Source of the DNA: Haliotis rufescens
Lineage: Eukaryota
Length of the DNA: 64,000 nt
Direction: 5' to 3'
NCBI RefSeq assembly: GCF_023055435.1
Contig: NW_025963891.1
Span: 18,848,001 to 18,912,000, forward strand
Shown: piece by piece, positions 3,001 to 64,000 of the stretch
Position numbering within the stretch: the stretch's first letter is position 1
Layout of the letters: each line of letters starts with the position of its first letter
Notes under the pieces: model-generated
The model's input: only the letters and a program-made list of their open reading frames with translations
What the model was told of the DNA's origin: nothing
The model's database searches: none
Made by a program: the position numbers and the translations under genes

Positions 3001-3190
3001 TCCTCCATGTACCAAGTGGACACTCCACCCTATACTCCATCCTCCATGTACCAAGTGGACACCCCACCCTATACTCCATGTACCAAGTGGACACCCAACC
3101 CTATACTCCATGTACCAAGTGGACACCCCACCCTATACTCCATCCTCCATGTACCAAGTGGACGCTCCACCCTATACTCCATCCTCCATC
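1..3190. repeat. Intronic minisatellite, 39-bp unit with interspersed 32-bp variants
   Basis: Unit CCCTATACTCCATCCTCCATGTACCAAGTGGACACCCCA. The short variant lacks CCTCCAT. Point variants include ACCCAA, AAACGCCA and ACTCCA. Continues off the left edge and explains all ORFs in 1-3300. Confidence 0.98.
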
Positions 3191-3221
3191 ACCAAAATCC
3201 AACATGTGACTATTTGCTTAC

Positions 3222-34295: not shown

Positions 34296-34949
34296 TCATA
34301 TGTTGCTGATTCCAAGTCGCTCAGCTTGTTCGAGGGCACCTTTAAGGTTGTCATCAAACAGTTCACATCTGATAGGCATGTCTAAAGAATAAAACGGGTT
34401 CTTCAAAGCAAAGTCAGCGTAAATCTCATACAACTTCTTCAGCAGCATTTCTACTGCTGTCTGTCTAGGATCTGTTAGCACGACAAATTTGATGCCCGTC
34501 ATTGTTTGATGGCAATGAAGTTTAAAAGTGTCTGTCTCTAAAACCTCGATTCCTGATGATCTGGGTTCGGGCGAAAGTTGTGTTCCGAATGCGAACAATG
34601 AATGAAACATACTGGCGAGCATTATACGCTGATTTGATGTCAGCTTTGGTCGTCCGAACTTGATGTTGATTGGATATTTTTTCTCGTCATTTAGCACTTC
34701 AATGATGTCTCTTCCATCTTTTAAGCAACGTCCCTCCGCTTGAATTCCGTTGACAGACAGTACCGTGTGTCCAACTTTAATGCCATCTCGTTCTCCGAAT
34801 GCCACAACAACTCGTTCGTCAAATATTTTGAGTTTCAGTTCCAGAGGAAAACTAAAGGTTTTCTCGACCTCAGGGCGGTTTGACGTGTGGTCGTAGTGAT
34901 AAATCAGACTCCCGGCTTTGTTGATGACATAGACACTAAAAATGGCCAT
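34296..34949 (-). CDS. TRAPPC4: Trafficking protein particle complex subunit 4 (synbindin/Trs23), single coding exon, 217 aa
   Basis: [17 protein letters not shown]...[10 protein letters not shown]...[23 protein letters not shown]...[23 protein letters not shown]. Includes the PDZ-like insert. Confidence 0.97.
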
Positions 34950-35520
34950 GTTTTTTCCAGATATATGGATCTTTTGTTTTCTTGATGACCCACCTTACAT
35001 TTAGACCGCTGGAAACAACACCTTCACTTGTGTGAGCCAAGTATTCAAACAAAAACACTACCCCTCCCACGAAATTAATGCTATGTAAACCGGAAGTACG
35101 AGGCGTCACAGCATTGAGAAATGTAATACCGATCTGTGGTATCTCGGATTTAACGAAATGAAACGATCGATCGCGTCCGACGAGTTCGGAATGTGTCCCC
35201 TATTGCGTTTTGGCGATGCTTATCATGTTCTTGTTCATGAAACAAAAAGTTTAGTTGATGTCAGAACAATACAGGGATACATATCTCAATGCACAAAACA
35301 TAAGAATTATGTATATATGGATCCTTTATATGCTATCCAAATATTCATTGTGGAAAAATACTGTAAAAAAATCATTTTCATCAGTTGACACTTGATAACA
35401 TGTTTTAGTTTTTTCGTGGTATTCAGCTTATGAATTCTCGAGTTATGTACCCTGAAAACCAATGTCGAGGTCGGAGAAAATGACCCGGAAGTAGATCTTT
35501 CAGAAATTAATCACGTAAGT
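34950..35520. promoter_or_regulatory. Bidirectional TRAPPC4/RPS2 promoter with a tiny non-coding RPS2 exon 1
   Basis: ETS-type CCGGAAGT at 35090-35097 and 35485-35492. Pyrimidine TCT-type start TCTTTC at ~35496-35501, donor GTAAGT at 35515 and acceptor TTTCAG ending 35718, two nt before the ATG. Confidence 0.7.
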
Positions 35521-35720
35521 CGAGAGACGTGCTTTATTTTTACCTCCTTACAATCGCGACAATTTCCATACAATCATAAGATAATTAGTCGTTATGACTA
35601 TGTATATACGTTGTATAACCAATAAACATGACACTTCGGACATTATTTTTAGTTATTATATAAGCATTTGTCCAGTATCCTTCTGTATATTTATTCGTAT
35701 TATACCTGAAATTTTCAGCA

Positions 35721-39510
<3,790 letters not shown>

Positions 39511-40640
39511 ACACTTGTGTAAAACTTGTGTAAAACAAAATAAGAAAATAAAAAAAAAAACCATAACATAACATATGTTTTCTTTTTCTTTAATCGTGAA
39601 TATCCGTTTCAAATTTGGATACTGGCATTATATTTTCCTATGCTTTTCTTGGTTCAAGGAGGCAGCTTTAGAACTAAACTTGATAGCTTTACTAGCCTGG
39701 GTAAAGATAAAATGCCTTTGTAATGTTAAAACAATGGGGAAATTTGCACTAGTCTGCAGGAATTGCATGATGTCAATCACTGGATTGTGTGGTTCACACT
39801 CGATTTGTTACAGACCGCTGTTATATAGCTGGAATATTGCTGAGCGCAGCGTTAAACCGCAAACAGAAATAGTGTTCTGTCTAGTAAGCTAAGCTAATTA
39901 GTCCATATATCACATCACTAAATTCCACTGCAAATGGTTCTAAGAGCTATGTTTGAACTAGTAGCTGCAAATTGAATGCCCAGTAGAAAAATCAGTTTGG
40001 CATGTTTGAAACACTGATTGCTTTATATTTATGGGCATGGAAGATGAGATCCCTTGATTATGCACTGTTTGACAAGTTGAATGAACTAGAGAAATTGGAA
40101 ATTGTGTTTCAAGGTTTTGAAAGTATGACTCCTGGTTGACAGGACTATTGCATTGGTGTGTTTTTCAGGCAGTTTTGTGAAATTGTATACACAAGCAGGA
40201 CTAAGAAATTGATTGTGGGGTGGTCTGTGACCTGGATGGAAAACCTACTTTGCAACCAGGATGGTTTTGTCTCCAGATCTGTGTGGGATTTTAACTTAAC
40301 AAATAGCTGTCCTGCAACTTGAGCTTGTTGGATGGTGTAACTCAATGAATGGTTATGAGATTGTGTGTCATCATTTAGTGATGTCTTGGGAAGTTGTGCT
40401 TAATATCAACCACAGGTTTGTTGGATCCAGACTCGACACTACTGGCGCTGTCATAGGGTTTGAATATTGCCAAATGGGGCATTAAACAGTTTGTTTATTC
40501 TATGATTGAGACTAAGCCCTTTAAAGAATCGCCAGATGTACTTCTCCCCAGTCATGAGACCAACTCATGCTCCTGTGTTTTATCACATGGTAAACATTTA
40601 CGACCAAAGTCATTTTGAGCTCTCCTGTCCCACTGGAAAA

Positions 40641-45242: not shown

Positions 45243-48200
45243 ATGTTGAACGGAACAGGACTGTCTTTCATTCTATGGCTACTGATGAACGCGGCTTCTG
45301 CTCGCGGAGACAACAGCCCCGGTGTATCTTGGGAGGTGGAAGATATGCTTGTAAAACTGCAGGATGATCTTGGCATAAAAAGTCTAGGTAAGATGCCTTT
45401 GTAGCATCTGCATTTTATTAACTTCTCCATACTCAATTATGCAGTGTATCACATCTCCATTCTGTAATGATAACATATCCTGGACCAATCGCTGCGATAG
45501 CTTCGTCAACATCTCCATCTGTCATATCACTAAATTTTGACCCTTGAAGATCCGGGGTAGAAAAGGTCTTTAGAAACCCATGCTTGCAGTAAAAGGCAAC
45601 CATGTTTGTCGTAAGAGGCGACTAACGGGATCGGGTGGTCAGGCTCGCTGACTTGGTTGATGCTTATCATTGTATCCCAATTGCGTAGATCGATGCTTAT
45701 GATGTCAATCACTGGATTGTTTGGTCCAGACTCGATTATTTACAGGCCGCCGTAATACAGCTGGAATATTGCGGAGTGCGGCATTAAACAACAAACAGAC
45801 TTATGACGCTCGTTGCAAAATGTCCACTATATCAAAAATGACCTGAACAACCCAAGAATTAGTTCTGTTACGTTGAAGAAAAATAGATACCTGAGGATAC
45901 AGTAAAGTACGGTTATAACGAATTCAAAGGGTCTACTAATTCTAGTTCGTTATAACCGTAGTTTGTTATAAGCATATATACAGCATAACTACAGCAAATA
46001 GTCGGGACCAAAACATCCGTAAGTTCATTATAAGCGTGTTCGTTATAACCGTAGTTTACTGTATTTGTTTTGGCCTAAACTGGGACCCTTTTCCTTTATC
46101 CGTACTTTTACTTTATCCTCATACGTTTATACGCTCAACCGAAATTGTACCACTGACCACTCAGTTCCGAATACTGTCGCTGCCTCACTGCCCACAGTAC
46201 TGTGTGCACTGTAGTCGACGTTATTTGCCGCGGTGTGACATTCTACATATTTCATCTACAGGAAGCAAGACTCCACTTTACCGCAAAGACATGTCTTCTG
46301 ATTACGTCGCCTATTGGCTCATAGAGTTCAATAAGGAGGGATATGTCATTCTGTCATCAGGGGAGGCAACCGGTGACTACAGGTGCTTACTAAATATAAT
46401 TCTTTTGAGAGTCTTTGTTTTTGTCCATCAATGACGCCGAAATATCAACGCTTGGCATGAATGGGCAGAAAATGGTTTAACATACCGTTCGTTCGATATC
46501 AGGAATATATCTTACCAAGTTATTGTTGCAATAAACTACACGTATATTAATCTGCTCATTATGTTCAAATAGGTTACAAAACTGTACGTGTATCTTAGTC
46601 CCTCAAAACAGATACTCGTGCAATCGGGCCGATTTTATGACATGCTCGTGTGTCGTTATGAGGGTAGTGTAACGCTGCTCCGAGGTGAGGTGAGGTGAAA
46701 TTGGGTTTAACGTCGCGTCCAAGAATATTGCACTTACTTAGCGACGTGCATGTACGTGTGTGTGTGTGGCTGCTTGTACTAGTCCGAAATGATGCCGATT
46801 TATAGTGCTAGCCCACTGAGATATCATGCCGCAGTGTAACATGAATACCCCACTCAGACACACTATACTGACTCCGAGCCGACCAGTCCTTGTTTTAGCC
46901 CCTTAATGCCGAGTGCCAGACAGGGCAACAACAAGTACCATCTTTTAACGTCTTTTTGGTATGACGCGGCCGGGGATCCAACCCCGGGCCTTCCGCTCTC
47001 CGGGCGGACGCTCTACCTCTAGACCACGGAGGCGGTCTACGCTGCTCCGAACATTAATCCAGTTATATCACGGCGTGTTTATGTTGGAGGAAAACCGAAG
47101 TGATGCAGGTCTCACACGTTTACCACTTTAGTGAAACCCACGAGCACGGATATGGTGCTGACAAACCTAGAAACATTATCAGGTCGAACCGGGATTCGAA
47201 CCCATGATTATAGGTTTCTGGCACGCCTAATGGACACCCTGAGTAATTAAAGGATACTATGAAGTTGAATCGTGTATTTGTGATCAACTGTTTCCCTCGA
47301 TGCCTCATGCACTATTTCACTCTTGAAAGGCTGCTCCAACAGGGTTATCTCCCCTCCCCGGTGGTCGTGCTGTCTCGACGGGCAGAGAGACAGGGGGCGC
47401 CATGTTCCAGGTTCTATGTGTTCACAATAGACGCCGAGATCCTGTGTGAAGACAGCCAAGGGTCTGTAGCTGCCTCAACCATGGACGAGCTGCTGGGTAA
47501 TCCGGTAAATATACACTGAAGTGTGGCGCCCTACATCTTCCCCAGGCAAGGGAGTTCTATGAAAATGAACATTAATTATAGAATAGAGGAAGTTCGGATT
47601 ATCTATTCCAAGTAAATGAATTGTGTGAGACCCGATCCATTAGCGAGATAACTGATAATTCGCATCTTCCAGAGGCAAGGGAGTTAATTGGCTATAAAAA
47701 TCCAGTTCCGACCCTTGCCGAATTCGGCTGGAATTTCTGGGCTCGATCGAAGCGCCACCAGTGGCTATTACGAGTTATGTCCCTTCTATGTCCATCTCAC
47801 ATCACTTCAGATAGCAAAAATTGTATGCCTAAAACACTCTAGCAATGACAGGTATTGATGGGTCTTCAACAACCAAACACTTTACCAACTTGTCTTCAGT
47901 TTCGCCTTCAAAGGGAAGAGTATTAATGAGCTCAATCACTGCATCAATAAAATACATCATATTAAGTCTAATGATGAAGGTATTAGCTTCGTTAAGATGT
48001 AGTCTAATACATGTGTTCTAAAGCTGTAACGGATTTTATAACTGATCTTGCATTGATCTTGTACTGATATCACACCAATTATATATTACAATATTATTCA
48101 CACGACTAGACCTTTTCTAGTTTCTTCTTACACCGCCGGATTAAGGGTTAGAATTGATCCACAGGGACCAATGCTGGTCGTATGAAGCGACTTATTCGAT

Positions 48201-50371
48201 CGGATGGTCTGGATGGGTGATCTTAATTGGTTGATGCGGTGCCACCAAAGCCAGACGGCGAGGGTCATTGTTCACAATATCAATCAGTGGACTGTCTGGT
48301 CCAGACTAAATTATTTGCATGCTGTCGTCATATAGCTACAATACCAGTCCTGTTGTAAGTGTGTTATCTAAAATTTCGGCGGACAATCCTTGAGCCAAGT
48401 ACCTACACGTTACATGTTTTTGTATTATTCAGTTGGAATATAATATAGATATGCGAACGTTGTAATCTATTATTCACCATTCCTCAATACCAGAATGAGC
48501 TTCATGACGAACAGCTGGCTAGAGAGTACAGGGCTGTTTCCGGTGGACAGCGCTACCTGGCGGAAGAATGGGACAAAAAGCGTAGGGACATCCGGGCCAG
48601 TCCCGAGTGGAGGACACTCAGCGTTGTACGCGCAGGACAGGGAGTACAGCAGGTCAGTGTCGTAAATGGAGACCCGAAGTGAAAGATCTGTGATGTATTG
48701 TGCGAACTGAAAAGTGGTTTTCAAGCCAGTGGCATTTTTAGCAACTACTACACATTTAATCTAGGTTGATTTTTAGAGGGGAATCCTTTCACATCCATAT
48801 AGTTTTCATTGAATTAACGCTATTCTCATAGGTCGGATTTATCCAGTTACATTTTCTTACATCCTTTTAGAAAAAAAAATTCTCCAGTGCTCCATTACTC
48901 TTAACAACCTGATCTTATATGATTTGTTTTTGTTTAGCCGCGCACACAGCAATATTCCAGCTAAATGAGGGGTTAAAGATCCGGGTTAGAATTGGTCTTA
49001 AATCTCCAACGAGCGTAGTGATATTAAGAACTATTGTGATACAAATCATTTTCGCAAATATTCTTCATCCGTATTTCATAAATATTGTCTCAATTCTATG
49101 GTAACCCTGGAAAGGTGTTTCTACCAAAACTGAATCGTGATTCACAAAATCACCCGCTATGGAGATAAGTTACATGTAATTAAGTATTCAAGTACTTAAT
49201 ATATGATGAACCGATTTGAGCTTTTATTCATTTTCAGGTTTACGAGGAATATGTGATTATCGCCCGAGAGCAGGCAGTTGCTGTAGGAAACGCCACCACT
49301 GTTCGCATACGCGCCTTCAACGAAACTGCGACCTTTGATCCCTTTATCCTGGTGCCCAAATATGAATCGAAACAAACCTCTGACCTACAACAGAATACAT
49401 GCATCCTAACACAACTCTGTTCAAGTTCAGACCTGACCTTAATCAATCAAGAAAAGATAAAAACAGACGAAAATGGTCTACGATACGTTCCGGTGCGGTT
49501 CGGCATCACGCGAATTCCCGTGAGATTTCAGATTGAGGTGTATCTGTCTGACGGATCAGTTGCTGTACGCAACTTCCGGTTGGATGTTTCTCTAACCCGC
49601 GCTGCTGTACAACCGATGCACATCTACACTGTTCCCCTAGAGGAGGAGTTCCCCGACTATTGGCAGCCTACCGTGAACGCTTCACTCAACAGGCAGTATC
49701 AACAGTGCCAGGTAGGCGACGGGACAGTAGCATGGGCCATGGTTCTGGGTTATTATGACCGCCGTTCCTCAGCTAGACCACGTGAATTTGGTACTGCTTC
49801 ACAAGGCCTCTTTAGATGTGGACCATTTGGTTTCCATGGCGATAAGAAATGTAAAGCTCCAAAGAAAAATGACGCTTCTTTTGAAAAGTACCTTGACTCA
49901 TTAAAACGTCGACTGAACGTCATTTGTAACGGCGACGTTGGCGTGACGCGGGACACCATGATGGCCAACATCCAGCCACTGTTTGATCATTTGATGGAGG
50001 AGGCCTCGACTGTCGTCTTGACTCACCAGTCGGACAAGAAGTTGTACGGTCTGCTTCCGAACTACTTCCCGAGGGATCCCGATGGTGCCCGAAACCACGC
50101 GATCAAGCATTTGATGAGCAGGGACACACTTCCGGTTGTGGTGGATTCCCGGATGTCCAGGTTCTGGGGCCCTGTTGGCCAGCATTACGTTGTAGCCACC
50201 AAGCTGAGGCGGCGGTCCCTAAGGTACAGGGTGTGCACAGGGAGGGGTTGTGGACAGTGGCGGACGGACTTTGATGTCGAGTGGTACGAACACAGCGGCT
50301 TGGAGTCCAAGGTGGGAGATGGTTGGCAAAAGGCCAACACGTTCTTTGCCGCCATAGCCTCCTACAAATAG
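45243..50371 (+). CDS. Secreted 577-aa protein with a putative propeptide and a C-terminal papain-fold (peptidase C10/C39-like) domain, probably catalytically inactive
   Basis: Exons 45243-45387 (MLNGTGLSFILWLLMNAASARG..., signal-peptide-like), 46262-46382, 47330-47504, 48494-48652 and 49238-50371. All GT-AG with phases 1,2,0,0 consistent and no internal stop. Motifs CQVGDGTVAWAMVLGYYDR and GQHYVVAT. The fold assignment is inference. Confidence 0.82.
45900..46061. mobile_element. Tc1/mariner-type MITE
   Basis: TA-CAGTAAAGTACGGTTATAACG...CGTTATAACCGTAGTTTACTG-TA. Related degenerate copy at ~13562-13715. Confidence 0.85.
46684..47038 (-). mobile_element. tRNA-derived SINE, family C
   Basis: Full-length, with TSD ACGCTGCTCCGA on both sides. 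Confidence 0.9.
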
Positions 50372-52056
50372 AAAAACCAGAGAACATTCACTTTGGTCAA
50401 TGGAGGGATGGCTTTCCTAGCATTTTGCGAATATGATGTACCGGAATACTTTCACTGGTAAATAAGCAATGAATAAGATACAACTCAAGACATACAAAGT
50501 TTGTCATTTTTTGTAAAATTGTTTATCCTCGATCATAGGCCATACCTAAAGGTAAAGTGAAATCGATGTAAAAACTTATTGAACATTTCATATAGTGGTT
50601 GTTTGCTTATCAAGCATCTGCAGCATTAAATGAATGACAGTGATGAAGTCGTTTAGGCATAATTCTGGTTAGTTGATTGGTTTGTTGTTTAACGCCGCAT
50701 TCAGCAATATTCCAGCTATATGACGGCGGTCTGTAAATAATCGAGTCTGGATCAGACAATCCAGTGATTGACATCATGAACATCGATCCACGCAATTGGG
50801 ATCGATAACATGCCTCAACCAAGTCAGCGAGCCTGACCACCCGATCCCGTTAGTCGCCTCTAACGACAAGCATAGTCATACCTCGATGGCATGAACCAGT
50901 GTTCACAAAACCAAACACAGGTTAGCCACGAATCATGCATGACGTAGTTGTACTATTGCTGACTGTGGCACAAAACAACAGCAAATAAACACTGAAAATA
51001 GTATGCAGTCTGCAGGACAAGGTATCATATCCGCCCATATAATGTGTGTCCACGTGAGTGAATGCTATTTTAGGTCGTAGTTAGCAATAATAAGGTGCGG
51101 TAGCTTAAAGCACTGACTCTCCTTACTGCAGTTTTATCGTGTAAGGTTCAGACAAACCAATGGTCAATAGTTTGTTTGTTTGTTGTTTTAACGCCGCACT
51201 CAGCAATATTCCATCTATATGACGGCGGTCTGTAAAAAATCGAGTCTGGACCAGACAATCCAGTGATTGACATGGTGATCATCGATCTACCCAATTGGGA
51301 TCGATGACATGCATCAACCATGTCAGCGAGCCTGACCACCCGATCCCGTTAGTCGCCTTTCACTACAAGCATAGTCATCTGTTACGGCAAGCATGGATTG
51401 CTGAAAACCTATTCTACCCCGGATCTTCACGGGTCAGTGGTGAATAGTAGGAACATCATAATAAGATAACAGTTCTCCATCGTTTCTCTCAATAGAGATC
51501 TTTTCACCTTTTAACATTCAGTGTGACCATTAGACTGACATTTAGTCACAGAAATAAAGTTATCTTATTTAATACATATTACAGAATAATTGAGTTTGTT
51601 TGTTTGTTTGTTGTTTAACGTCGCACTCAACAATATTCCAGCTATATGACGGCGGTCTGTAGATAATCGAGTCTGGACCAGACAATCCAGTGATTGACAT
51701 GATGATCATCGATCTACGCAATCAGGATACAATGACATGCATCAACCAAGTCAGCAAACCTGACCGTCCGATCCCATGAGACAAGAATCGACAATCGCCT
51801 CTTACGACAAGAATGGTTGCTTTTTACGGCAAGCATGGGTTGCTGAAGACCTACCCCACCCCGGACCTTCGCAGGAAATGAAAATGAATTCTTCGCAACA
51901 TACATTATTTTAGAAATGAAATCAATATTGTTTACGTATATGTATGTATAAACGAAAAAACATGGTATATCTATTCCTTACATACAGCTTAGGAAAGATT
52001 GACACACATGGACTTCCTTCCCTTTGAACTTGTGTCAGTGTAAAGGGATTAATTAG

Positions 52057-55000
52057 TCGGAAAGGGTATTGGTATGACTTACTGGCCAGAATAATAACGA
52101 GCGTCGCCAATAAAAGGTAGGAACGGGTTGGGAAGCGTTCTGGAACTAACGGATTCGTCCGCCAAGCCCAAATCGCTGACGTCAACAATGGAGCTACGTC
52201 ACGGCCTTGTGTGTCCCCCCAAAACTCTTGACATCATAGAACGATTACGTCAACAATCAGCTGACGTCAGAGACTATCACATCGTCAATAGCGTAGACGG
52301 CTGGAGGGCCTGTTGCTTTCGGGGGCAGCTTTTGATACTGCAAAGACAAGCACTGATTAGATGAGGACTGGTGTTCAGCGCAGGTAAGCCGCTCCTTTTA
52401 TTCTTTGAAAAGAAAAAGACTTTAATGTCCAATCTAAGAAAGGGCAACACACCACAATGTGACTTTGTGCACAAGGGAATGGAGGACTGTAGTATTTCAA
52501 GTGATGAATCGAGTTTGTATCTGCGTTAGTTTTGTCATCTGAATGTTTGCAGAGTCGGAAACGATGTTGTAGTTGGACTGAAGGGGACGTTACGCTGAGT
52601 AGTGTGTACAAACATGCAAGTCCCTGGGAGTATTTTTTATTCTCTTTGGATAAGTTAGTCTCGTGAATGTGTTACGCACGCTCGTGTGCTCACTACGCGA
52701 CGGCATATAGAATGACTGTTTTCTTAAATTTTGTAATGGTAAGTGATTATACCGTCCCAGACCATTGGATTGTGTTTGCATGGAGGCGATTGTTTATTGT
52801 GAATTTTGCAGAACTGAGACACATATATAGACCGAAAGTTGCCCAGAGACTTCTCTTTACATTTGAGTCGCCGTCAGGGAATTAATTTGACAGTGTCGCA
52901 GAGTTTCGTCATCTTCCGTACCTGCTATGTGCAAATGGATGGACACTTCCTAATGTTTTCTGTGTTTAAAAAAAGGAAGCAGATAGACCCAGATGTAAAT
53001 AAATCCGCTGAATCTAATGGGCCGAGTAGAATTAGTTTTGTACACTTTCAGGGTATAATCACCTGGCAGTCTCACAAAGTCTTATTTTAGGCGTATTTTT
53101 TCCTTTAAAAAATGTAGATGTCATACTCATAACAACGTGCTTCGGGAGCTTCATCTCTATTACAAGGGGTTGACTGGAAGTGTGTATTGTAGCTTGCCTC
53201 TTCTTTCATTGCCTCTGTACAAAACACTGTGAAGGGAGACCGAGTGCGAGTCGGAAGGGTATTGGTATGACTTACTGGCCAGAATAATAACGAGCGTCGC
53301 CAATAAAAGGTAGGAACGGGTTGGGAAGCGTTCTGGAACTAACGGATTCGGCCGCCAAGCCCAAATCGCTGACGTCAACAATGGAGCTACGTCACGGCCT
53401 TGTGTGTCCCCCAAAACTCTTGACATCATAGAACGATTACGTCAACAATCAGCTGACGTCAGAGACTATCACATCGTCAATAGCGTAGACGGCTGGAGGG
53501 CCTGTTGCTTTGGGGGGCAGCTTTTGATACTGCAAAGACAAGCACTGATTAGATGAGGACTGGTGTTCAGCGCAGGTAAGCCGCTGCTTTTTTTCTTTGA
53601 TAAGAAAAAGACTTTAATGTCCAATCTAAGAAAGGGCAACACACCACAATGTGACTTTGTGCACAAGGGAATGGAGGACTGTAGTATTTCAAGTGATGAA
53701 TCGAGTTTGTATCTGCGTTAGTTTTGTCATCTGAATGTTTGCAGAGTCGGAAACGATGTTGTAGTTGGACTATGCAAGTCCCTGGGAGTATTTTTTATTC
53801 TCTTTGGATAAGTTAGTCTCGTGAATGTGTTACGCACGCTCGTGTGCTCACTACGCGACGGCATATAGAATGACTGTTTTCTTAAATTTTGTAATGGTAA
53901 GTGATTATACCGTCCCAGACCATTGGATTGTGTTTGCATGGAGGCGATTGTATATTATGAATTTTGCAGAACTGAGACACATGTATAGACCGAAAGTTGC
54001 CCAGAGACTTCTCTTTACATTTGAGTCGCCGTCAGGGAATTAATTTGACAGTGTCGCAGAGTTTCGTCATCTTCCGTACCTGCTATGTGCAAATGGATGG
54101 ACACTTCCTAATGTTTTCTGTGTTTAAAAAAGGAAGCAGATAGAGCCAGATGTAAATAAATCCGCTGAATCTAATGGGCCGAGTAGAATTAGTTTTGTAC
54201 ACTTTCAGGGTATAATCACCTGGCAGTCTCACAAAGTCTTATTTTAGGCGTATTTTTTCCTTTAAAAAATGTAGATGTCATACTCATAACAACGTGCTTC
54301 GGGAGCTTCATCTCTATTACAAGGGGTTGACTGGAAGTGTGTATTGTAGCTTGACTGAAGGGGACGTTACGCTGAGTAGTGTGTACAAACATGCAAGTGC
54401 TGGGGAGTATTTTTTATTCTCTTTGGATAAGTTAGTCTCGTGAATGTGTTACGCACGCTCGTGTGCTCACTACGCGACGGCATATAGAATGACTGTTTTC
54501 TTAAATTTTGTAATGGTAAGTGATTATACTGTCCCAGACCATTGGATTGTGTTTGTATGGAGGCGATTGTAAATTGTGAATTTTGCAGAACTGAGACACA
54601 TGTATAGACCGAAAGTTACCCAGAGACTTCTCTTTACATTTGAGTCGCCGTCAGGGAATTAATTTGACAGTGTCGCAGAGTTTCGCCATCTTCCGTACCT
54701 GCCATGTGCAAATGGATGGACACTTCTTAATGTTTTCTGTGTTTAAAAAAGGAAACAGATAGAGCCAGATGTTAATAAATCCGCTGAATCTAATGGGCCG
54801 AGTAGAATTAGTTTTGTACACTTTCAGGGTATAATCACCTGGCAGTCTCACAAAGTCTTATTTTAGGCGTATTTCTTCCTCTAAAAAATGTAGATGTCAT
54901 ACTCATAACAACGTGCTTCCGGAGCTTCATCTCTATTACAAGGGTTGACTGGAAGTGTGTATTGTAGCTTGCCTCTTCTTTCATTGCCTCTGTACAAAAC

Positions 55001-58000
55001 ACTGTGAAGGGAGACCGAGTGCGAGTCGGAAGGGTATTGGTATGACTTACTGGCCAGAATAATAACGAGCGTCGTCAATAAAAGGTAGGAACGGGTTGGG
55101 AAGCGTTCTGGAACTAACGGATTCGGCCGCCAAGCCAAAATCGCTGACGTCAACAAAGGAGCTACGTCACGGCCTTGTGTGTCCCCCCAAAACTCTTGAC
55201 ATCATAGAACGATTACGTCAACAATCAGCTGACGTCAGAGACTATCACATCGTCAATAGCGTAGACGGCTGGAGGGCCTGTTGCTTTCGGGGGCAGCTTT
55301 TGATACTGCAAAGACAAGCACTGATTAGATGAGGACTGGTGTTCAGCGCAGGTAAGCCGCTGCTTTTATTCTTTGAAAAGAAAAAGACTTTAATGTCCAA
55401 TCTAAGAAAGGGCAACACACCACAATGTGACTTTGTGCACAAGGGAATGGAGGACTGTAGTATTTCAAGTGATGAATCGAGTTTGTATCTGCGTTAGTTT
55501 TGTCATCTGAATGTTTGCAGAGTCGGAAACGATGTTGTAGTTGGACTGAAGGGGACGTTACGCTGAGTAGTGTGTACAAACATGCAAGTCCCTGGGAGTA
55601 TTTTTTATTCTCTTTGGATAAGTTAGTCTCGTGAATGTGTTACGCACGCTCGTGTGCTCACTACGCGACGGCATATAGAATGACTGTTTTCTTAAATTTT
55701 GTAATGGTAAGTGATTATACCGTCCCAGACCATTGGATTGTGTTTGCATGGAGGCGATTGTATATTGTGAATTTTGCAGAACTGAGACACATGTATAGAC
55801 CGAAAGTTACCCAGAGACTTCTCTTTACATTTGTGTCGCCGTCAGGGAATTAATTTGACAGTGTCGCAGAGTTTCGCCATCTTCCGTACCTGCCATGTGC
55901 AAATGGATGGACACTTCTTAATGTTTTCTGTGTTTAAAAAAGGAAACAGATAGAGCCAGATGTAAATAAATCCGCTGAATCTAATGGGCCGAGTAGAATT
56001 AGTTTTGTACACTTTCAGGGTATAATCACCTGGCAGTCTCACAAAGTCTTATTTTAGGCGTATTTTTTCCTTTAAAAAATGTAGATGTCATACTCATAAC
56101 AACGTGCTTCGGGAGCTTCATCTCTATTACAAGGGGTTGACTGGAAGTGTGTATTGTAGCTTGCCTCTTCTTTCATTGCCTCTGTACAAAACACTGTGAA
56201 GGGAGACCGAGTGCGAGTCGGAAGGGTATTGGTATGACTTAATGGCCAGAATAATAACGAGCGTCGCCAATAAAAGGTAGGAACGGGTTGGGAAGCGTTC
56301 TGGAACTAACGGATTCGGCCGCCAAGCCCAAATCGCTGACGTCAACAATGGAGCTACGTCACGGCCTTGTGTGTCCCCCAAAACTCTTGACATCATAGAA
56401 CGATTACGTCAACAATCAGCTGACGTAAGAGACTATCACATCGTCAATAGCGTAGACGGCTGGAGGGCCTGTTGCTTTGGGGGGCAGCTTTTGATACTGC
56501 AAAGACAAGCACTGATTAGATGAGGACTGGTGTTCAGCGCAGGTAAGCCGCTGCTTTTTTTCTTTGATAAGAAAAAGACTTTAATGTCCAATCTAAGAAA
56601 GGGCAACACACCACAATGTGACTTTGTGCACAAGGGAATGGAGGACTGTAGTATTTCAAGTGATGAATCGAGTTTGTATCTGCGTTAGTTTTGTCATCTG
56701 AATGTTTGCAGAGTCGGAAACGATGTTGTAGTTGGACTATGCAAGTCCCTGGGAGTATTTTTTATTCTCTTTGGATAAGTTAGTCTCGTGAATGTGTTAC
56801 GCACGCTCGTGTGCTCACTACGCGACGGCATATAGAATGACTGTTTTCTTAAATTTTGTAATGGTAATTGATTATACCGTCCCAGACCATTGGATTGTGT
56901 TTGCATGGAGGCGATTGTTTATTATGAATTTTGCAGAACTGAGACACATGTATAGACCGAAAGTTGCCCAGAGACTTCTCTTTACATTTGAGTCGCCGTC
57001 AGGGAATTAATTTGACAGTGTCGCAGAGTTTCGTCATCTTCCGTACCTGCTATGTGCAAATGGATGGACACTTCCTAATGTTTTCTGTGTTTAAAAAAGG
57101 AAGCAGATAGAGCCAGATGTAAATAAATCCGCTGAATCTAATGGGCCGAGTAGAATTAGTTTTGTACACTTTCAGGGTATAATCACCTGGCAGTCTCACA
57201 AAGTCTTATTTTAGGCGTATTTCTTCCTCTAAAAAATGTAGATGTCATACTCATAACAACGTGCTTCCGGAGCTTCATCTCTATTACAAGGGTTGACTGG
57301 AAGTGTGTATTGTAGCTTGCCTCTTCTTTCATTGCCTCTGTACAAAACACTGTGAAGGGACACCGAGTGCGAGTCGGAAAGGGTATTGGTATGACTTACT
57401 GGCCAGAATAATAACGAGCGTCGCCAATAAAAGGTAGGAACGGGTTGGGAAGCGTTCTGGAACTAACGGATTCGGCCGCCAAGCCAAAATCGCTGACGTC
57501 AACAATGGAGCTACGTCACGGCCTTGTGTGTCCCCCAAAACTCTTGACATCATAGAACGATTACGTCAACAATCAGCTGACGTCAGAGACTATCACATCG
57601 TCAATAGCGTAGACGGCTGGAGGGCCTGTTGCTTTGGGGGGCAGCTTTTGATACTGCAAAGACAAGCACTGATTAGATGAGGACTGGTGTTCAGCGCAGG
57701 TAAGCCGCTGCTTTTATTCTTTGATAAGAAAAAGACTTTAATGTCCAATCTAAGAAAGGGCAACACACCACAATGTGACTTTGTGCACAAGGGAATGGAG
57801 GACTTTGGTAATTGAGGTGATGAATCGAGTTTGTATCTGCGTTAGTTTTGTCATCTGAATGTTTGCAGAATCGGAAACGATGTTGTAGTTAGACTGAAGG
57901 GGACGTTACGCTGAGTAGTGTGTACAAACATGCAAGTGCTGGGGAGTATTTTTTATTCTCTTTGGATAAGTTAGTCTCGTGAATGTGTTACGCACGCTCG

Positions 58001-61000
58001 TGTGCTCACAACGCGACGGCATATAGAATGACTGTTTTCTTAAATTTTGTAATGGTAAGTGATTATACTGTCCCAGACCATTGGATTGTGTTTGTATGGA
58101 GGCGATTGTAAATTGTGAATTTTGCAGAACTGAGACACATGTATAGACCGAAAGTTACCCAGAGACTTCTCTTTACATTTGAGTCGCCGTCAGGGAATTA
58201 ATTTGACAGTGTCGCAGAGTTTCGCCATCTTCCGTACCTGCCATGTGCAAATGGATGGACACTTCCTAATGTTTTCTGTGTTTAAAAAAGGAAACAGATA
58301 GAGCCAGATGTTAATAAATCCGCTGAATCTAATGGGCCGAGTAGAATTAGTTTTGTACACTTTCAGGGTATAATCACCTGGCAGTCTCACAAAGTCTTAT
58401 TTTAGGCGTATTTCTTCCTCTAAAAAATGTAGATGTCATACTCATAACAACGTGCTTCCGGAGCTTCATCTCTATTACAAGGGTTGACTGGAAGTGTGTA
58501 TTGTAGCTTGCCTCTTCTTTCATTGCCTCTGTACAAAACACTGTGAAGGGAGACCGAGTGCGAGTCGGAAGGGTATTGGTATGACTTACTGGCCAGAATG
58601 ATAACGAGCGTCGCCAATAAAAGGTAGGAACGGGTTGGGAAGCGTTCTGGAACTAACGGATTCGGCCGCCAAGCCCAAATCGCTGACGTCAACAATGGAG
58701 CTACGTCACGGCCTTGTGTGTCCCCCCAAAACTCTTGACATCATAGAACGATTACGTCAACAATCAGCTGACGTCAGAGACTATCACATCGTCAATAGCG
58801 TAGACGGCTGGAGGGCCTGTTGCTTTCGGGGGCAGCTTTTGATACTGCAAAGACAAGCACTGATTAGATGAGGACTGGTGTTCAGCGCAGGTAAGCCGCT
58901 GCTTTTATTCTTTGAAAAGAAAAAGACTTTAATGTCCAATCTAAGAAAGGGCAACACACCACAATGTGACTTTGTGCACAAGGGAATGGAGGACTGTAGT
59001 ATTTCAAGTGATGAATCGAGTTTGTATCTGCGTTAGTTTTGTCATCTGAATGTTTGCAGAGTCGGAAACGATGTTGTAGTTGGACTGAAGGGGACGTTAC
59101 GCTGAGTAGTGTGTACAAACATGCAAGTCCCTGGGAGTATTTTTTATTCTCTTTGGATAAGTTAGTCTCGTGAATGTGTTACGCACGCTCGTGTGCTCAC
59201 TACGCGACGGCATATAGAATGACTGTTTTCTTAAATTTTGTAATGGTAAGTGATTATACCGTCCCAGACCATTGGATTGTGTTTGCATGGAGGCGATTGT
59301 ATATTGTGAATTTTGCAGAACTGAGACACATGTATAGACCGAAAGTTACCCAGAGACTTCTCTTTACATTTGTGTCGCCGTCAGGGAATTAATTTGACAG
59401 TGTCGCAGAGTTTCACCATCTTCCGTACCTGCCATGTGCAAATGGATGGACACTTCTTAATGTTTTCTGTGTTTAAAAAAGGAAACAGATAGAGCCAGAT
59501 GTAAATAAATCCGCTGAATCTAATGGGCCGAGTAGAATTAGTTTTGTACACTTTCAGGGTATAATCACCTGGCAGTCTCACAAAGTCTTATTTTAGGCGT
59601 ATTTTTTACTTTAAAATGTAGATGTCATACTCATAACAACGTGCTTCGGGAGCTTCATATCTATTACAAGGGGTTGACTGGAAGTGTGTATTGTAGCTTG
59701 CCTCTTCTTTCAATGCCTCTGTACAAAACACTGTGAAGGGAGACCGAGTGCGAGTCGGAAGGGTATTGGTATGACTTACTGGCCAGAATAATAACGAGCG
59801 TCGTCAATAAAAGGTAGGAACGGGTTTGGAAGCGTTATGGAACTAACGGATTCGGCCGCCAAGCCCAAATCGCTGACGTCAACAATGGAGCTACGTCACG
59901 GCCTTGTGTGTCCCCCAAAACTCTTGACATCATAGAACGATTACGTCAACAATCAGCTGACGTCAGAGACTATCACATCGTCAATAGCGTAGACGGCTGG
60001 AGGGCCTGTTGCTTTGGGGGGCAGCTTTTGATACTGCAAAGATAAGCACTGATTAGATGAGGACCGGTGTTCAGCGCAGGTAAGCCGCTGCTTTTATTCT
60101 TTGAAAAGAAAAAGACTTTAATGTCCAATGTAAGAAAGGGCAACACACCACAATGTGACTTTGTGCACAAGGGAATGGAGGACTGTAGTATTTCAAGTGA
60201 TGAATCGAGTTTGTATCTGCGTTAGTTTTGTCATCTGAATGTTTGCAGAGTCGGAAACGATGTTGTAGTTGGACTGAAGGGGACGTTACGCTGAGTAGTG
60301 TGTACAAACATGCAAGTGCTGGGGAGTATTTTTTATTCTCTTTGGATAAGTTAGTCTCGTGAATGTGTTACGCACGCTCGTGTGCTCACTACGCGACGGC
60401 ATATAGAATGACTGTTTTCTTAAATTTTGTAATGGTAACTGATTATACCGTCCCAGACCACTGGATTGTGTTTGCATGGAGGCGATTGTATATTGTGAAT
60501 TTTGCAGAACTGAGACACATGTATAGACCGAAAGTTGCCCAGAGACTTCTCTTTACATTTGAGTCGCCGTCAGGGAATTAATTTGACAGTGTCGCAGAGT
60601 TTCGCCATCTTCCGTACCTGCTATGTGCAAATGGATGGACACCTTCTAATGTTTTCTGTGTTTAAAAAAGGAAGCAGATAGAGCCAGATGTAAATAAATC
60701 CGCTGAATCTAATGGGCCGAGTAGAATTAGTTTTGTACACTTTCAGGGTATAATCACCTGGCAGTCTCACAAAGTCTTATTTTAGGCGTATTTTTTCCTT
60801 TAAAAAATGTAGATGTCATACTCATAACAACGTGCTTCGGGAGCTTCATCTCTATTACAAGGGGTTGACTGGAACTGTGTATTGTAGCTTGCCTCTTCTT
60901 TCATTGCCTCTGTACAAAACACTGTGAAGGGAGACCGAGTGCGAGTCGGAGGGGTATTGGTATGACCTACTGGCCAGAATAATAACGAGCGTCGCCAAAA

Positions 61001-64000
61001 AAAGGTAGGAACGGGTTGGGAAGCGTTCTGGAACTAACGGATTCGGCCGCCAAGCCCAAATCGCTGACGTCAACAATGGAGCTACGTCACGGCCTTGTGT
61101 GTCCCCCAAAACTCTTGACATCATAGAACGATTACGTCAACAATCAGCTGACGTCAGAGACTATCACATCGTCAATAGCGTAGACGGCTGGAGGGCCTGT
61201 TGCTTTAGGGGGCAGCTTTTGATACTGCAAAGACAAGCACTGATTAGATGAGGACTGGTGTTCAGCGCAGGTAAGCCGCTGCTTTTTTTCTTTGATAAGA
61301 AAAAGACTTTAATGTCCAATCTAAGAAAGGGCAACACACCACAATGTGACTTTGTGCACAAGGGAATGGAGGACTGTAGTATTTCAAATGATGAATCGAG
61401 TTTGTATCTGCGTTAGTTTTGTCATCTGAATGTTTGCAGAGTCGGAAACGATGTTGTAGTTGGACTGAAGGGGACGTTACGCTGAGTAGTGTGTACAAAC
61501 ATGCAAGTGCTGGGGAGTATTTTTTATTCTCTTTGGATAAGTTAGTCTCGTGAATGTGTTACGCACGCTCGTGTGCTCACTACGCGACGGCATATAGAAT
61601 GACTGTTTTCTTAAATTTTGTAATGGTAAGTGATTATACCGTCCCAGACCATTGGATTGTGTTTGCATGGAGGCGATTGTATATTGTGAATTTTGCAGAA
61701 CTGAGACACATGTATAGACCGAAAGTTGCCCAGAGACTTCTCTTTTCATTTGAGTCGCCGTCAGGGAATTAATTTGACAGTGTCGCAGAGTTTCGCCATC
61801 TTCCGTACCTGCCATGTGCAAATGGATGGACACTTCTTAATGTTTTCTGTGTTTAAAAAAGGAAACAGATAGAGCCAGATGTTAATAAATCCGCTGAATC
61901 TAATGGGCCGAGTAGAATTAGTTTTGTACACTTTCAGGGTATAATCACCTGGCAGTCTCACAAAGTCTTATTTTAGGCGTATTTCTTCCTCTAAAAAATG
62001 TAGATGTCATACTCATAACAACGTGCTTCCGGAGCTTCATCTCTATTACAAGGGGTTGACTGGAGGTGTGTATTGTAGCTTGCCTCTTCTTTCATTGCCT
62101 CTGTACAAAACACTGTGAAGGGAGACCGAGTGAGACTCGGAAGGGTATTGGTATGACTTACTGGCCAGAATAATAACGAGCGTCGTCAATAAAAGGTAGG
62201 AACGAGTTGGGAAGCGTTCTGGAACTAACGGATTCGGCCGCCAAGCCCAAATCGCTGACGTCAACAATGGAGCTACGTCACGGCCTTTTGTGTCCCCCAA
62301 AACTCTTGACATCATAGAACGATTACGTCAACAATCAGCTGACGTCAGAGACTATCACATCGTCAATAGCGTAGGCGGCTGGAGGGCCTGTTGCTTTCGG
62401 GGGCAGCTTTTGATACTGCAAAGACAAGCACTGATTAGATGAGGACTGGTGTTCAGCGCAGGTAAGCCGCTGCTTTTATTCTTTGAAAAGAAAAAGACTT
62501 TAATGTCCAATCTAAGAAAGGGCAACACACCACAATGTGACTTTGTGCACAAGGGAATGGAGGACTGTAGTATTTCAAGTGATGAATCGAGTTTCCATCT
62601 GCGTTAGTTTTGTCATCTGAATGTTTGCAGAATCGGAAACGATGTTGTAGTTAGACTGAAGGGGACGTTACGCTGAGTAGTGTGTACAAACATGCAAGTG
62701 CTGGGGAGTATTTTTTATTCTCTTTGGATAAGTTAGTCTCGTGAATGTGTTACGCACGCTCGTGTGCTCACTACGCGACGGCATATAGAATGACTGTTTT
62801 CTTAAATTTTGTAATGGTAAGTGATTATACCGTCCCAGACAATTGGATTGTGTTTGCATGGAGGCGATTGTATATTGTGAATTTTGCAGAACTGAGACAC
62901 ATGTATAGACCGAGAGTTGCCCAGAGACTTCTCTTTACATTTGAGTCGCCGTCAGGGAATTAATTTGACAGTGTCGCAGAGTTTTGGCCATCTTCCGTAC
63001 CCGCTATGTGCAAATGGATGGACACTTCCTAATGTTTTCTGTGTTTAAAAACGGAAGCAGATAGAGCCAGATGTAAATAAATCCGCTGAATCTAATGGGC
63101 CGAGTAGAATTAGTTTTGTACACTTTCAGGGTATAATCACCTGGCAGTCTCACAAAGTCTTATATTAGGCGTATTTTTTCCTTTAAAAAATGTAGATGTC
63201 ATACTCCTAACAACGTGCTTCGGGAGCTTCATCTCTATTACAAGGGGTTGACTGGAACTGTGTATTGTAGCTTGCCTCTTCTTTCATTGCCTCTGTACAA
63301 AACACTGTGAAGGGAGACCGAGAGCGAGTCGGAAAGGCTATTGGTATGACTTACTGGCCAGAATAATAACGAGCGTCGCCAATAAAAGGTAGGAACGGGT
63401 TGGGAAGCGTTCTGGAACTAACGGATTCGGCCGCCAAGCCCAAATCGCTGACGTCAACAAAGGAGCTACGTCACGGCCTTTTGTGTCCCCCAAAACTCTT
63501 GACATCATAGAACGATTACGTCAACAATCAGCTGACGTCAGAGACTATCACATCGTCAATAGCGTAGACGGCTGGAGGGCCTGTTGCTTTGGGGGGCAGC
63601 TTTTGATACTGCAAAGACAAGCACTGATTAGATGAGGACTGGTGTTCAGCGCAGGTAAGCCGCTGCTTTTATTCTTTGATAAGAAAAAGACTTTAATGTC
63701 CAATCTGAGAAAGGGCAACACACCACAATGTGACTTTGTGCACAAGGGAATGGAGGACTGTAGTATTTCAAATGATGAATCGAGTTTCCATCTGCGTTAG
63801 TTTTGTCATCTGAATGTTTGCAGAGTCGGAAACGATGTTGTAGTTGGACTGAAGGGGACGTTACGCTGAGTAGTGTGTACAAACATGCAAGTGCTGGGGA
63901 GTATTTTTTATTCTCTTTGGATAAGTTAGTCTCGTGAATGTGTTACGCACGCTCGTGTGCTCACTACGCGACGGCATATAGAATGACTGTTTTCTTAAAT
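52057..64000. repeat. Large tandem array (macrosatellite), ~1190-bp unit, about 10.5 units, continues off the right edge
   Basis: Unit starts (GTCGGAAGGGTATTGG) at about 52057, 53250, 55025, 56217, 57373, 58564, 59754, 60945, 62136 and 63328, with one truncated unit at ~54352-55024. Copies differ only by scattered SNPs and small indels. Confidence 0.98.

Follow-up and report, generated by a model that had tools for sequence, protein, structure and literature searches.

A putative secreted pseudo-protease of abalone and its animal-wide family with a predicted streptopain-like zymogen architecture

Introduction

Streptopain (SpeB) and interpain A belong to MEROPS family C10 of clan CA and are described by the Pfam domain PF01640 together with a PF13734-type prodomain. 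Proteases of the streptopain type are bacterial virulence factors, and pseudo-proteases are common in clan CA. How, then, does a gene resembling such an enzyme, with Asp in the place of the catalytic Cys, come to lie in an abalone genome, and what might its product do there? The gene, LOC124133930, is found in a window of 64,000 nucleotides of Haliotis rufescens DNA (the whole stretch that was analysed). A sequence-only reading had proposed that a mainly bacterial family was domesticated and then inactivated. The answer we favour with moderate confidence is that LOC124133930 encodes a secreted single-chain pseudo-protease that would bind an extracellular partner, with the family history proposed below.

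Gene model, splicing and copy number

The gene consists of five exons:

45243..45387, + strand: exon 1, aa 1–48; start codon, likely signal peptide (about aa 1–22) and first prodomain helix
46262..46382, + strand: exon 2, aa 49–88; prodomain strands with the AYWLIEF..GYVILSSG motif, resembling the prodomain motif of the C10 proteins compared
47330..47504, + strand: exon 3, aa 89–147; prodomain
48494..48652, + strand: exon 4, aa 148–200; end of the prodomain and first Ig-like strand
49238..50371, + strand: exon 5, aa 201–577 plus stop, 1134 bp; Ig-like and papain-fold domains

The open reading frame of 1734 nt, with GT..AG introns in phases 1, 2, 0 and 0, is intact, as had been read from the sequence, and its 577-aa translation is identical to XP_046354473.2 (NCBI). 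A signal peptide, also part of that reading, is likely present, judging from the hydrophobic N-terminus. The putative catalytic domain does lie in the single 1134-bp exon; most of an Ig-like domain (aa 189–320) that had gone unmentioned shares exon 5 with it. The junctions find a match in other sequencing runs: introns are absent from an exon 3-4-5 contig of one run, and exons 3 and 5 are seen in the contig of a second (identifying these runs as RNA is only a guess). Differences in exon 1 carry the same contig depths in those runs. Of 14 cnidarian-type genomic ORFs, 10 are interrupted at the column of the phase-0 intron that follows exon 3.

With four introns, a location on a 22.5-Mb contig and actin and sybindin-family genes as neighbours, LOC124133930 is integrated in the host genome and is not contamination. 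It is the sole copy found; neither a second copy nor the Cys-bearing (GCG) paralogue that the sequence-only reading had suggested looking for turned up in the abalone genome. LOC124133930 is therefore unlikely to regulate an active sibling.

Predicted fold and relation to known protease families

The AlphaFold model (pLDDT 86.9, pTM 0.87) predicts the order signal peptide, SpeB-type prodomain, inserted Ig-like domain and papain-fold domain. The parts beyond the prodomain are:

49238..49597 plus the end of exon 4, + strand: predicted Ig-like beta-sandwich insert, aa 189–320; weak V-set Ig matches, Z about 5
49592..49603, + strand: linker LTRA, aa 319–322; the column of R-X-K/R-R in other animals and of the gene split in bacteria
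49616..50368, + strand: predicted streptopain-like catalytic-fold domain, aa 327–577; its residue 327 is aligned with the first residue of mature SpeB

The best structural matches were the SpeB zymogens 1pvj and 1dki (Z 16.9 and 16.8, rmsd 4.5, 274 and 271 residues aligned, model range 28–577), and prointerpain followed with Z 15.6. These C10 zymogens are matched over prodomain and catalytic domain in one superposition. The zymogen alignment covered 274 residues versus 190 for the mature enzyme (model range 28–576), which argues by fold for the SpeB-type prodomain that had been suspected from a motif. All of the top 25 rows of the structure search were papain-fold proteins, as expected for clan CA, and in the predicted model the central helix starts at residue 361 and the His column falls on a later strand. 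A model of a Cys-intact Saccoglossus member gave the same ranking of matches. Other papain-type cores, namely prostaphopain B (C47), IdeS/Mac-1 (C66) and C39 domains, scored lower than C10 (Z 12–13). The C1A papain cathepsins and their inactive homologues are in the same clan, and UniRef automatically names two family members 'Peptidase C1A papain C-terminal domain-containing'; however, the C1A proteins reach Z of only about 9–11.5 and have another prodomain, and PF00112 has no hit in 108 members of the present family.

The earlier comparison with C10 peptidases stands for the predicted fold and for the motif order (Q, GC-helix, H and x-x-G-W-G-G follow each other as in C10 in Cys-intact members), but not for the C10 sequence profile. 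PF01640 does not hit the abalone protein; it matches 15 of 108 members at E <= 0.01 (best E 7.8e-6), and its best score among 31 members scanned singly, 21 bits, stays below the Pfam cut-off of 26 bits. PF13734 has no hit in the abalone protein or in the 108 members scanned. PF13529 (C39-like, cut-off 24 bits) likewise has none in abalone, reaches 15.6 bits in Lottia and matches 4 of the 108 members weakly at E <= 0.01 (best E 2.1e-5). The family differs from C10 in its low identity (10–13%), in the inserted Ig-like domain and, in its animal members, in conserved cysteines and a furin-type site; the abalone copy has in addition Asp for Cys. NCBIfam gave no meaningful match for nine family proteins, and PDB sequence searches with three family profiles and one bacterial-side profile returned chance hits only. 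A Pfam bL31_N match (E 0.003–0.006, below cut-off) was rejected as chance. In the passages considered of PMC9455582, the C10 homologues named are bacterial only, and C10 is described as having a Cys-His pair without the papain Asn; of this pair, the abalone protein keeps His516, without Cys.

Active-site residues

The residues concerned are the following:

49664..49666, + strand: Gln343, conserved in 44 of 44 Cys-bearing rows; by papain and SpeB, presumably the oxyanion-hole Gln
49706..49708, + strand: Cys357, a family-wide upstream Cys outside the nucleophile column; likely disulfide with Cys430
49718..49720, + strand: Asp361 (GAC), occupying the column of the nucleophile Cys, where the central helix starts
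50183..50185, + strand: His516 (CAT), in the catalytic-His column, kept; no change listed in 4 of 4 runs
50300..50302, + strand: Leu555, replacing the Trp of the H-x-G-W-G-G motif, which we take to be an active-site residue; Trp in 26 of 29 Cys-bearing rows

Both the exchange of the catalytic Cys for Asp and the retention of His had been read correctly from these codons. The column of Asp361 holds Cys in 48 of 67 animal-side rows. Asp361 is also present in H. asinina and H. cracherodii, and its codon carries no listed change in 4 of 4 runs. Of the 38 columns that are at least 80% conserved in Cys-bearing animal rows, abalone retains 32; the six changed ones include C361D, P363T and W555L. Abalone has kept the structural cysteines, Gln343 and His516. 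It has lost the nucleophile Cys and the Pro that comes next, along with the Trp and the furin-type site. Loss of the Trp accompanies loss of the Cys (9 of 12 Cys-less rows vs 3 of 29 Cys-bearing rows; Fisher p 1e-4, the rows not being independent).

The abalone motifs are not a chance resemblance: the corresponding columns hold VGCGPVAWAMVLGYYD, QHYPV and HMGWGG in Lottia homologues, and the fold predicted for the abalone protein resembles that of C10 zymogens in both prodomain and catalytic domain. The C10 motif H-x-N-W-G-W-G/x-G is replaced by EHSGLES in abalone; the LHMGWGG of Cys-intact animals aligns with HVNWGW of four C10 proteins.

An animal family with rare bacterial relatives

Homologues, most of them Cys-intact, occur in a sponge, cnidarians, hemichordates, an annelid and other molluscs. 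In the full-length tree, sponge, cnidarians, hemichordates and lophotrochozoans are separated, and the tree follows animal phylogeny (all trees are quick IQ-TREE runs with SH-aLRT support only). In the openly accessible literature that we searched, the family is not described. A single paper there, PMC7020367, mentions a member, a coral (Acropora) homologue that is a presence-absence polymorphism shared between species.

The bacterial relatives share all three domains with the animal proteins (HHalign probability 100, E 1e-63, 458 columns). They differ in that Cys and His are intact and in that extra N-terminal domains are often fused or the protein is split over two genes. A motif scan of 185,579 genomes yielded 169 relatives, rich in Chloroflexota and including Myxococcota, Planctomycetota, Actinomycetota and Pseudomonadota; 200 further genomes in each of three phyla contained none, and sampling by phylum gave no useful closer outgroup. 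The bacterial family is thus rare, and the description 'mainly bacterial' needs correcting. What survives of the proposed bacterial origin is that the closest non-animal relatives are bacterial and have the whole architecture; the closest relatives overall are other animals, mostly with an intact GCG. Since intact relatives extend from sponge to hemichordates, any transfer predates the animal radiation and was not a mollusc event.

An ancient cross-domain transfer, in either direction, likely links the two families. It is quite possible, though we put it short of an even chance, that the family is ancestrally eukaryotic or animal and was passed to bacteria, possibly via large DNA viruses. In unrooted trees the sampled bacteria form one side of a branch with support 99 and the animals are not nested within them, which, like the rare and scattered occurrence in bacteria, fits this direction. 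Virus-like rows (L089, P0100) and a shrimp-annotated gene sit between the two groups, and a free tree rooted with four C10 proteins places the root among animals. However, the outgroup branch measures about 7 changes per column and the root is unsupported: trees in which animals, or animals plus intermediates, are held together fit equally well (AU p 0.56 and 0.54). The structural neighbours (C10, staphopain, IdeS, C39) and Atlas neighbours are bacterial, and no non-animal cellular eukaryote appeared among the 25 proteins looked up by name, of 150 listed hits and 200 weaker ones. An IMG/VR scan with the bacterial alignment gave 62 pattern matches, none of them a relative, and a BFVD fold search gave no match at E <= 0.001, which leaves the genes next to it in one 4.3-kb contig as the basis of the virus-like call.

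The activation linker

The furin-type motif R-X-K/R-R precedes the catalytic domain in 15 of 16 non-abalone animal full-length rows versus 0 of 2 abalone rows; in the model of the Cys-intact Saccoglossus member this linker is disordered. The same boundary, ahead of the catalytic domain, separates two genes in 21 of 80 bacterial loci. In four of these (L004, L008, L011, L016) an in-frame TGA precedes the catalytic ORF. Selenocysteine read-through was considered and rejected, as the TGA has an ATG no more than two codons behind it and the frame changes at the same place in the remaining 17 split loci. In abalone, R321 is the one Arg left in the linker, where cleavage by another protease would still be possible; furin-type processing is likely absent.

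Repeated loss of the catalytic Cys

The Cys is missing in 19 of 67 animal-side rows versus 0 of 52 non-animal-side rows, all 52 of which keep Cys and His. The 80 GTDB loci have no part in this count because their search pattern required GCG. According to the full-length tree, animals lost the Cys on at least four occasions. Intact and dead forms coexist in the Corticium and Saccoglossus genomes; abalone has the dead form only.

The abalone branch is long and its placement unstable, with a hemichordate Ser form in one tree and with lophotrochozoans in two. Is the inactive form then one old bilaterian paralogue common to abalones and hemichordates, rather than an event on the abalone stem? We consider this unlikely. 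Abalone shares a YFPR/IFPR stretch with the Ptychodera and Glandiceps Ser forms, its Ig-domain identity with them is 26–28% against 12–24%, one tree groups it with Saccoglossus P0010 (support 88), and the AU test does not reject a union of abalone with the hemichordate Ser forms (p 0.086). Yet the free full-length tree, better by 13.8 log-likelihood units, places abalone in the lophotrochozoans, the replacing residues differ (Asp vs Ser), and two of three hemichordate forms keep the furin-type motif.

The retained His516 and Gln343 could allow residual or altered chemistry. A repurposed site, in which Asp361 with His516 (His552 and Glu551 being near in sequence) does other chemistry or binds a metal, seems doubtful to us. 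The named abalone proteins all have the same Asp361, His516 and Gln343, and none of the four runs lists a change at the Asp or His codon, but the entire helix is conserved, so that a fixed Asp is not special. The adjoining Pro and Trp are gone, and elsewhere in the family Cys is replaced by Ser, His, Leu or Tyr, in some cases with loss of His too, a pattern of inactivation.

Selection and function in abalone

Purifying selection acts on LOC124133930. The gene is preserved intact in three named species of Haliotis, with H. rufescens and H. asinina sharing 87% identity, and has a variable loop at aa 461–485. The dN/dS comparison that had been proposed gave a pN/pS of about 0.24, with 15 synonymous changes over 141 sites vs 12 replacement changes over 480 sites, the changes being sorted by hand. 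With the catalytic residue lost, selection maintained and the fold kept by prediction, the gene has the features of a pseudoenzyme.

A role in the shell matrix, raised by the sequence-only reading, is improbable: although a likely secreted mollusc protein would suit it by inference, Lottia ids 239082 and 230987 were absent from five supplementary files of PMC4094399, in which two control ids were found. Four short motifs, looked for without a positive control, did not occur in 24 of the 27 supplementary files of PMC6003135, the H. laevigata shell proteome, and the family also occurs in unshelled animals. Even less credible is a decaying, functionless gene. The long branch, the dispensability of the polymorphic Acropora homologue (PMC7020367) and an H. 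rubra model (P0185) that goes out of frame past about aa 210, whether through a fault of assembly or a genuine loss, would agree with decay; the pN/pS ratio, the absence of indels from the compared stretch in four runs, the spliced contigs and the interspecies identity speak against it. An active protease with Cys357 as nucleophile can be practically dismissed: this Cys, whose place in the active site the earlier reading had named as a possible refutation, lies four residues upstream with His516 retained, but all 47 of the 47 Cys-bearing animal rows have it in addition to the nucleophile, usually together with Cys430, and the helix begins with Asp361 in the abalone model, just as it begins with Cys419 in that of the intact Saccoglossus protein.

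Proposed history and significance

We propose that a secreted cysteine protease of this family was already present in the last common ancestor of sponges and other animals. Furin-type cleavage at R-X-K/R-R, directly ahead of the catalytic domain, would likely have activated it, and an ancient cross-domain transfer likely ties it to the rare bacterial family. On the abalone stem, the sole copy would have lost the furin-type site and, in the catalytic domain, the Cys, the next Pro and the active-site Trp; a phase of fast evolution would have been followed by purifying selection. The prodomain would remain attached, and the folded three-domain protein, a full-length chain of 63 kDa, would bind a partner outside the cell or act there as a decoy, most plausibly on a surface exposed to microbes. 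Because the cleft would be covered by an attached prodomain, a decoy would have to use another surface or open up. More tentatively, the animal family, older than the sponge split, may have crossed between bacteria and the animal stem, perhaps via large DNA viruses; the boundary at which some bacteria split the gene may have become the furin switch, the enzyme may have been converted to a non-catalytic binder at least four times, and the dead, uncleavable form, the sole copy left in abalone, may have an immune or microbe-binding role.

Taken alone, the abalone gene is one more pseudo-protease; its family context is the larger finding. A pan-animal family with a streptopain zymogen architecture, unnamed in Pfam and NCBIfam, would add a protease family to marine invertebrates. 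Together with its bacterial relatives it is a candidate for a very early cross-domain transfer, and its intact, dead and presence-absence polymorphic copies may serve as a natural series for the origin of pseudo-enzymes.

Gene model and transcript

The gene, with GT..AG introns, lies among the following features of the window.

Features of the window (coordinates, strand where assigned, feature)
1-3300 and 8530-11170, a pair of C-rich minisatellite arrays, source of long spurious ORFs
25044-26171 and 34296-34994, minus, actin-family and sybindin-family genes, single ORF each
~35600-39700, plus, RGG-rich ORF with antisense ORFs
45243-45387, plus, exon 1
46262-46382, plus, exon 2
47330-47504, plus, exon 3
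48494-48652, plus, exon 4
49238-50371, plus, exon 5
49718-49720, plus, Asp361, codon GAC
50183-50185, plus, His516, codon CAT
52055-64000, tandem array beginning 1.7 kb past the gene, unit ~1.19 kb, copies 96-98% identical

As the sequence-only reading had proposed, the five exons join into an intact ORF, with Asp in the nucleophile column and the catalytic His retained. The 577-aa product is a 100% match to Haliotis rufescens LOC124133930, annotated as 'uncharacterized'. Contigs from public runs, which we guess to be RNA, carry exons 3, 4 and 5 contiguously, so the expected junctions are found and at least some of the coded organisms splice the gene. In three runs from three studies the contigs stop at 50488-50489, ~118 nt past the stop codon, which hints weakly at the transcript 3' end. 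Contamination can be dismissed, since the neighbours are ordinary eukaryotic genes, including the actin and sybindin families, on a 22.5-Mb contig. The antisense ORFs near 35600-39700 presumably resemble ribosomal protein S2; the single piece scanned gave no Pfam match.

Predicted fold

An AlphaFold2 model built from a 108-row alignment (pLDDT 86.9, pTM 0.87) supports the suspected streptopain-type fold. All eight Foldseek matches at E <= 0.001 were streptopain, and the top-ranked VIA-align match was the SpeB zymogen (Z 16.9, rmsd 4.5, 274 residues aligned, model 28-576), followed by prointerpain A (Z 15.6), mature SpeB (14.7), prostaphopain B (13.0) and IdeS (12.4); a wide structure search was consistent with this ranking. 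Because the zymogen alignment spans ~80 residues more than that with mature SpeB, the prodomain is predicted to pack against the catalytic domain in the manner of SpeB. In the model, residues 189-320 make up a beta-sandwich with weak matches to Ig V-set domains (Z ~5). The model of a Saccoglossus member that keeps the Cys yields the same fold picture. The proposed kinship with C10 is supported by the modelled fold. The Pfam C10 cut-off was reached by 0 of 31 family members scanned singly, and HHalign against C10 picked out 25 columns at the GC helix (E 4e-6), a faint link at the level of sequence.

An animal family and its relatives

The abalone protein is real and conserved, a likely pseudo-protease in an apparently undescribed, pan-animal streptopain-like family. 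Literature searches found no description of this family, and automated annotation already gives two members papain-like names. C10 homologues are described from bacteria in excerpts of PMC9455582. Searching 1.84 billion representatives with a profile (E <= 0.001) gave 350 matches, 150 of them listed. Among 25 proteins looked up by name, those with a name came from a sponge (Corticium, two genes), cnidarians (Nematostella, Acropora, Porites, Paramuricea), hemichordates (Ptychodera, Glandiceps, Saccoglossus), an annelid (Paralvinella), molluscs (Liolophura, Lottia, Littorina, Haliotis), the shrimp Halocaridina and one Chloroflexota bacterium. P0099, very divergent and with its Cys intact, sits on a long branch and may belong to a non-animal eukaryote.

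All trees were quick runs. Those from the catalytic domain split the animal from the bacterial side, while the full-length tree (22 rows) separates the sponge, cnidarians (support 99), hemichordates (84) and lophotrochozoans including abalone (88), the pattern that vertical descent would be expected to leave. In 10 of 14 cnidarian-type genomic ORFs there is a break at a Val in the column of abalone intron 3, where a coral-type locus has a phase-0 acceptor. This is only suggestive of an old intron common to abalone and cnidarians; the site lies in a loop. The cnidarian-type members P0024, P0030, P0032 and P0037, one of them the named Nematostella protein, are shorter (~360-420 aa), and none of the three tested contains prodomain-aligning sequence.

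Homology to the non-animal relatives runs through all three domains, prodomain, Ig insert and catalytic domain, over 458 columns (E 1e-63). Scanning 185,579 GTDB genomes for a motif returned 169 of these relatives; among the 80 loci kept, 39 are from Chloroflexota and the others are spread across about ten phyla, which the bacterial-side tree mixes. The bacterial family is rare, since samples of another 200 genomes from each of three phyla contained no member. Placed between animals and bacteria are the Halocaridina protein and a pair of almost identical types, P0100 and L089. The latter member (L089:1384-3390, also P0100 and P0188) has an internal N-terminal hydrophobic anchor and sits on a metagenome contig whose other small genes include DUF5754 and a HAD phosphatase. 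DUF5754 is common in PLVs, NCLDVs and phages (excerpts of PMC12220804), and an algal virus genome also lists it (excerpt of PMC12085832); on this ground we call L089 virus-like, short of proven viral. The Halocaridina rubra protein (P0061, KAK7025368.1), annotated as shrimp, falls outside the animal group and adjoins the virus-like rows; it may stem from a transfer of its own, from an endogenous viral gene or from contamination.

The sequence-only reading had suggested ancient horizontal transfer. An ancient cross-domain transfer of the family is likely, but within animals the family extends from sponge to mollusc with a tree as under vertical descent. Rooting on C10 gave no decisive root position, and we put the direction from bacteria to animals at even chances.

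Activation boundary

R-X-K/R-R is a furin-type cleavage motif. It directly precedes the catalytic domain in 15 of the 16 non-abalone full-length animal rows, the last having a dibasic KR, so these members may be processed by furin, judging from the motif. Both abalone rows read LTRAA at this position. The linker is disordered in the Saccoglossus model, and residue 1 of mature SpeB aligns with abalone residue 327. At the same boundary, 21 of the 80 bacterial loci are cut into two adjacent genes, prodomain-Ig and then a catalytic domain with its own ATG (L004, L008, L011, L016, L025, L032, L036, L039, L044-L048, L050, L052, L053, L055, L056, L061, L062, L082); the six present in the tree fall within one group (support 95) across five phyla. 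A Cystobacter member (L006, 4996-6790 region, G003:C2) is in two frames; its break, near profile position 228, is not at this usual split site.

Loss of catalytic residues

On the animal side the nucleophile column holds Cys in 48 of 67 rows and another residue in 19 (11 Ser, two Asp, two His and one each of Leu, Tyr, Val and Thr, the last two possibly misaligned fragments), while Cys and His are intact in all 52 rows of the other side. For these counts four added duplicates and P0099 were dropped, P0109 was put on the bacterial side, H. asinina was counted, and rows were mostly allotted to sides by motif rather than by name. The full-length tree requires four Cys losses; grouping abalone with the hemichordate Ser forms was not rejected (p 0.086).

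Abalone retains 32 of 38 strongly conserved columns, the six changes including loss of Cys361, Pro363 and Trp555. That the upstream Cys of QQC might occupy the active site loses its appeal, as Cys357 is an extra Cys found family-wide. The gene appears to be under purifying selection: over 49640-50260 (141 synonymous and 480 replacement sites), the 27 differences listed in four runs comprise 15 synonymous and 12 replacing changes (pN/pS ~0.24), with no indels and no difference at the Asp361 or His516 codon. Replacements bunch at residues 438-440, 461-483 and 527-529. Whether paralogues keep the Cys had been raised as a check; genome searches revealed no second abalone copy among the top candidates scored. 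The H. rubra model P0185 (LOC124263467, 243 aa) loses frame after residue ~210, by either assembly error or real loss.

Function

The abalone protein is very probably inactive as an enzyme. It would be secreted with its prodomain uncleaved and act as a binding or decoy protein, a reading that, taken whole, we moderately favour. Against it count the retained His516 and Gln343, the out-of-frame H. rubra model, the long abalone branch with its unstable position in quick trees, and taxonomy covering a minority of the matches. Neither of two shell proteomes lent support to the suggested shell-matrix role (supplements; 24 of 27 files in the second case). The Acropora digitifera homologue LOC107329813 (P0159) is Cys-intact, and excerpts of PMC7020367 report a presence-absence polymorphism of this gene common to A. 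digitifera and A. tenuis. Such dispensability, together with repeated loss of catalysis, would in our view fit a role in defence or facing the environment; for the abalone protein, binding at a surface exposed to microbes is a tentative possibility, falling a little short of an even chance.
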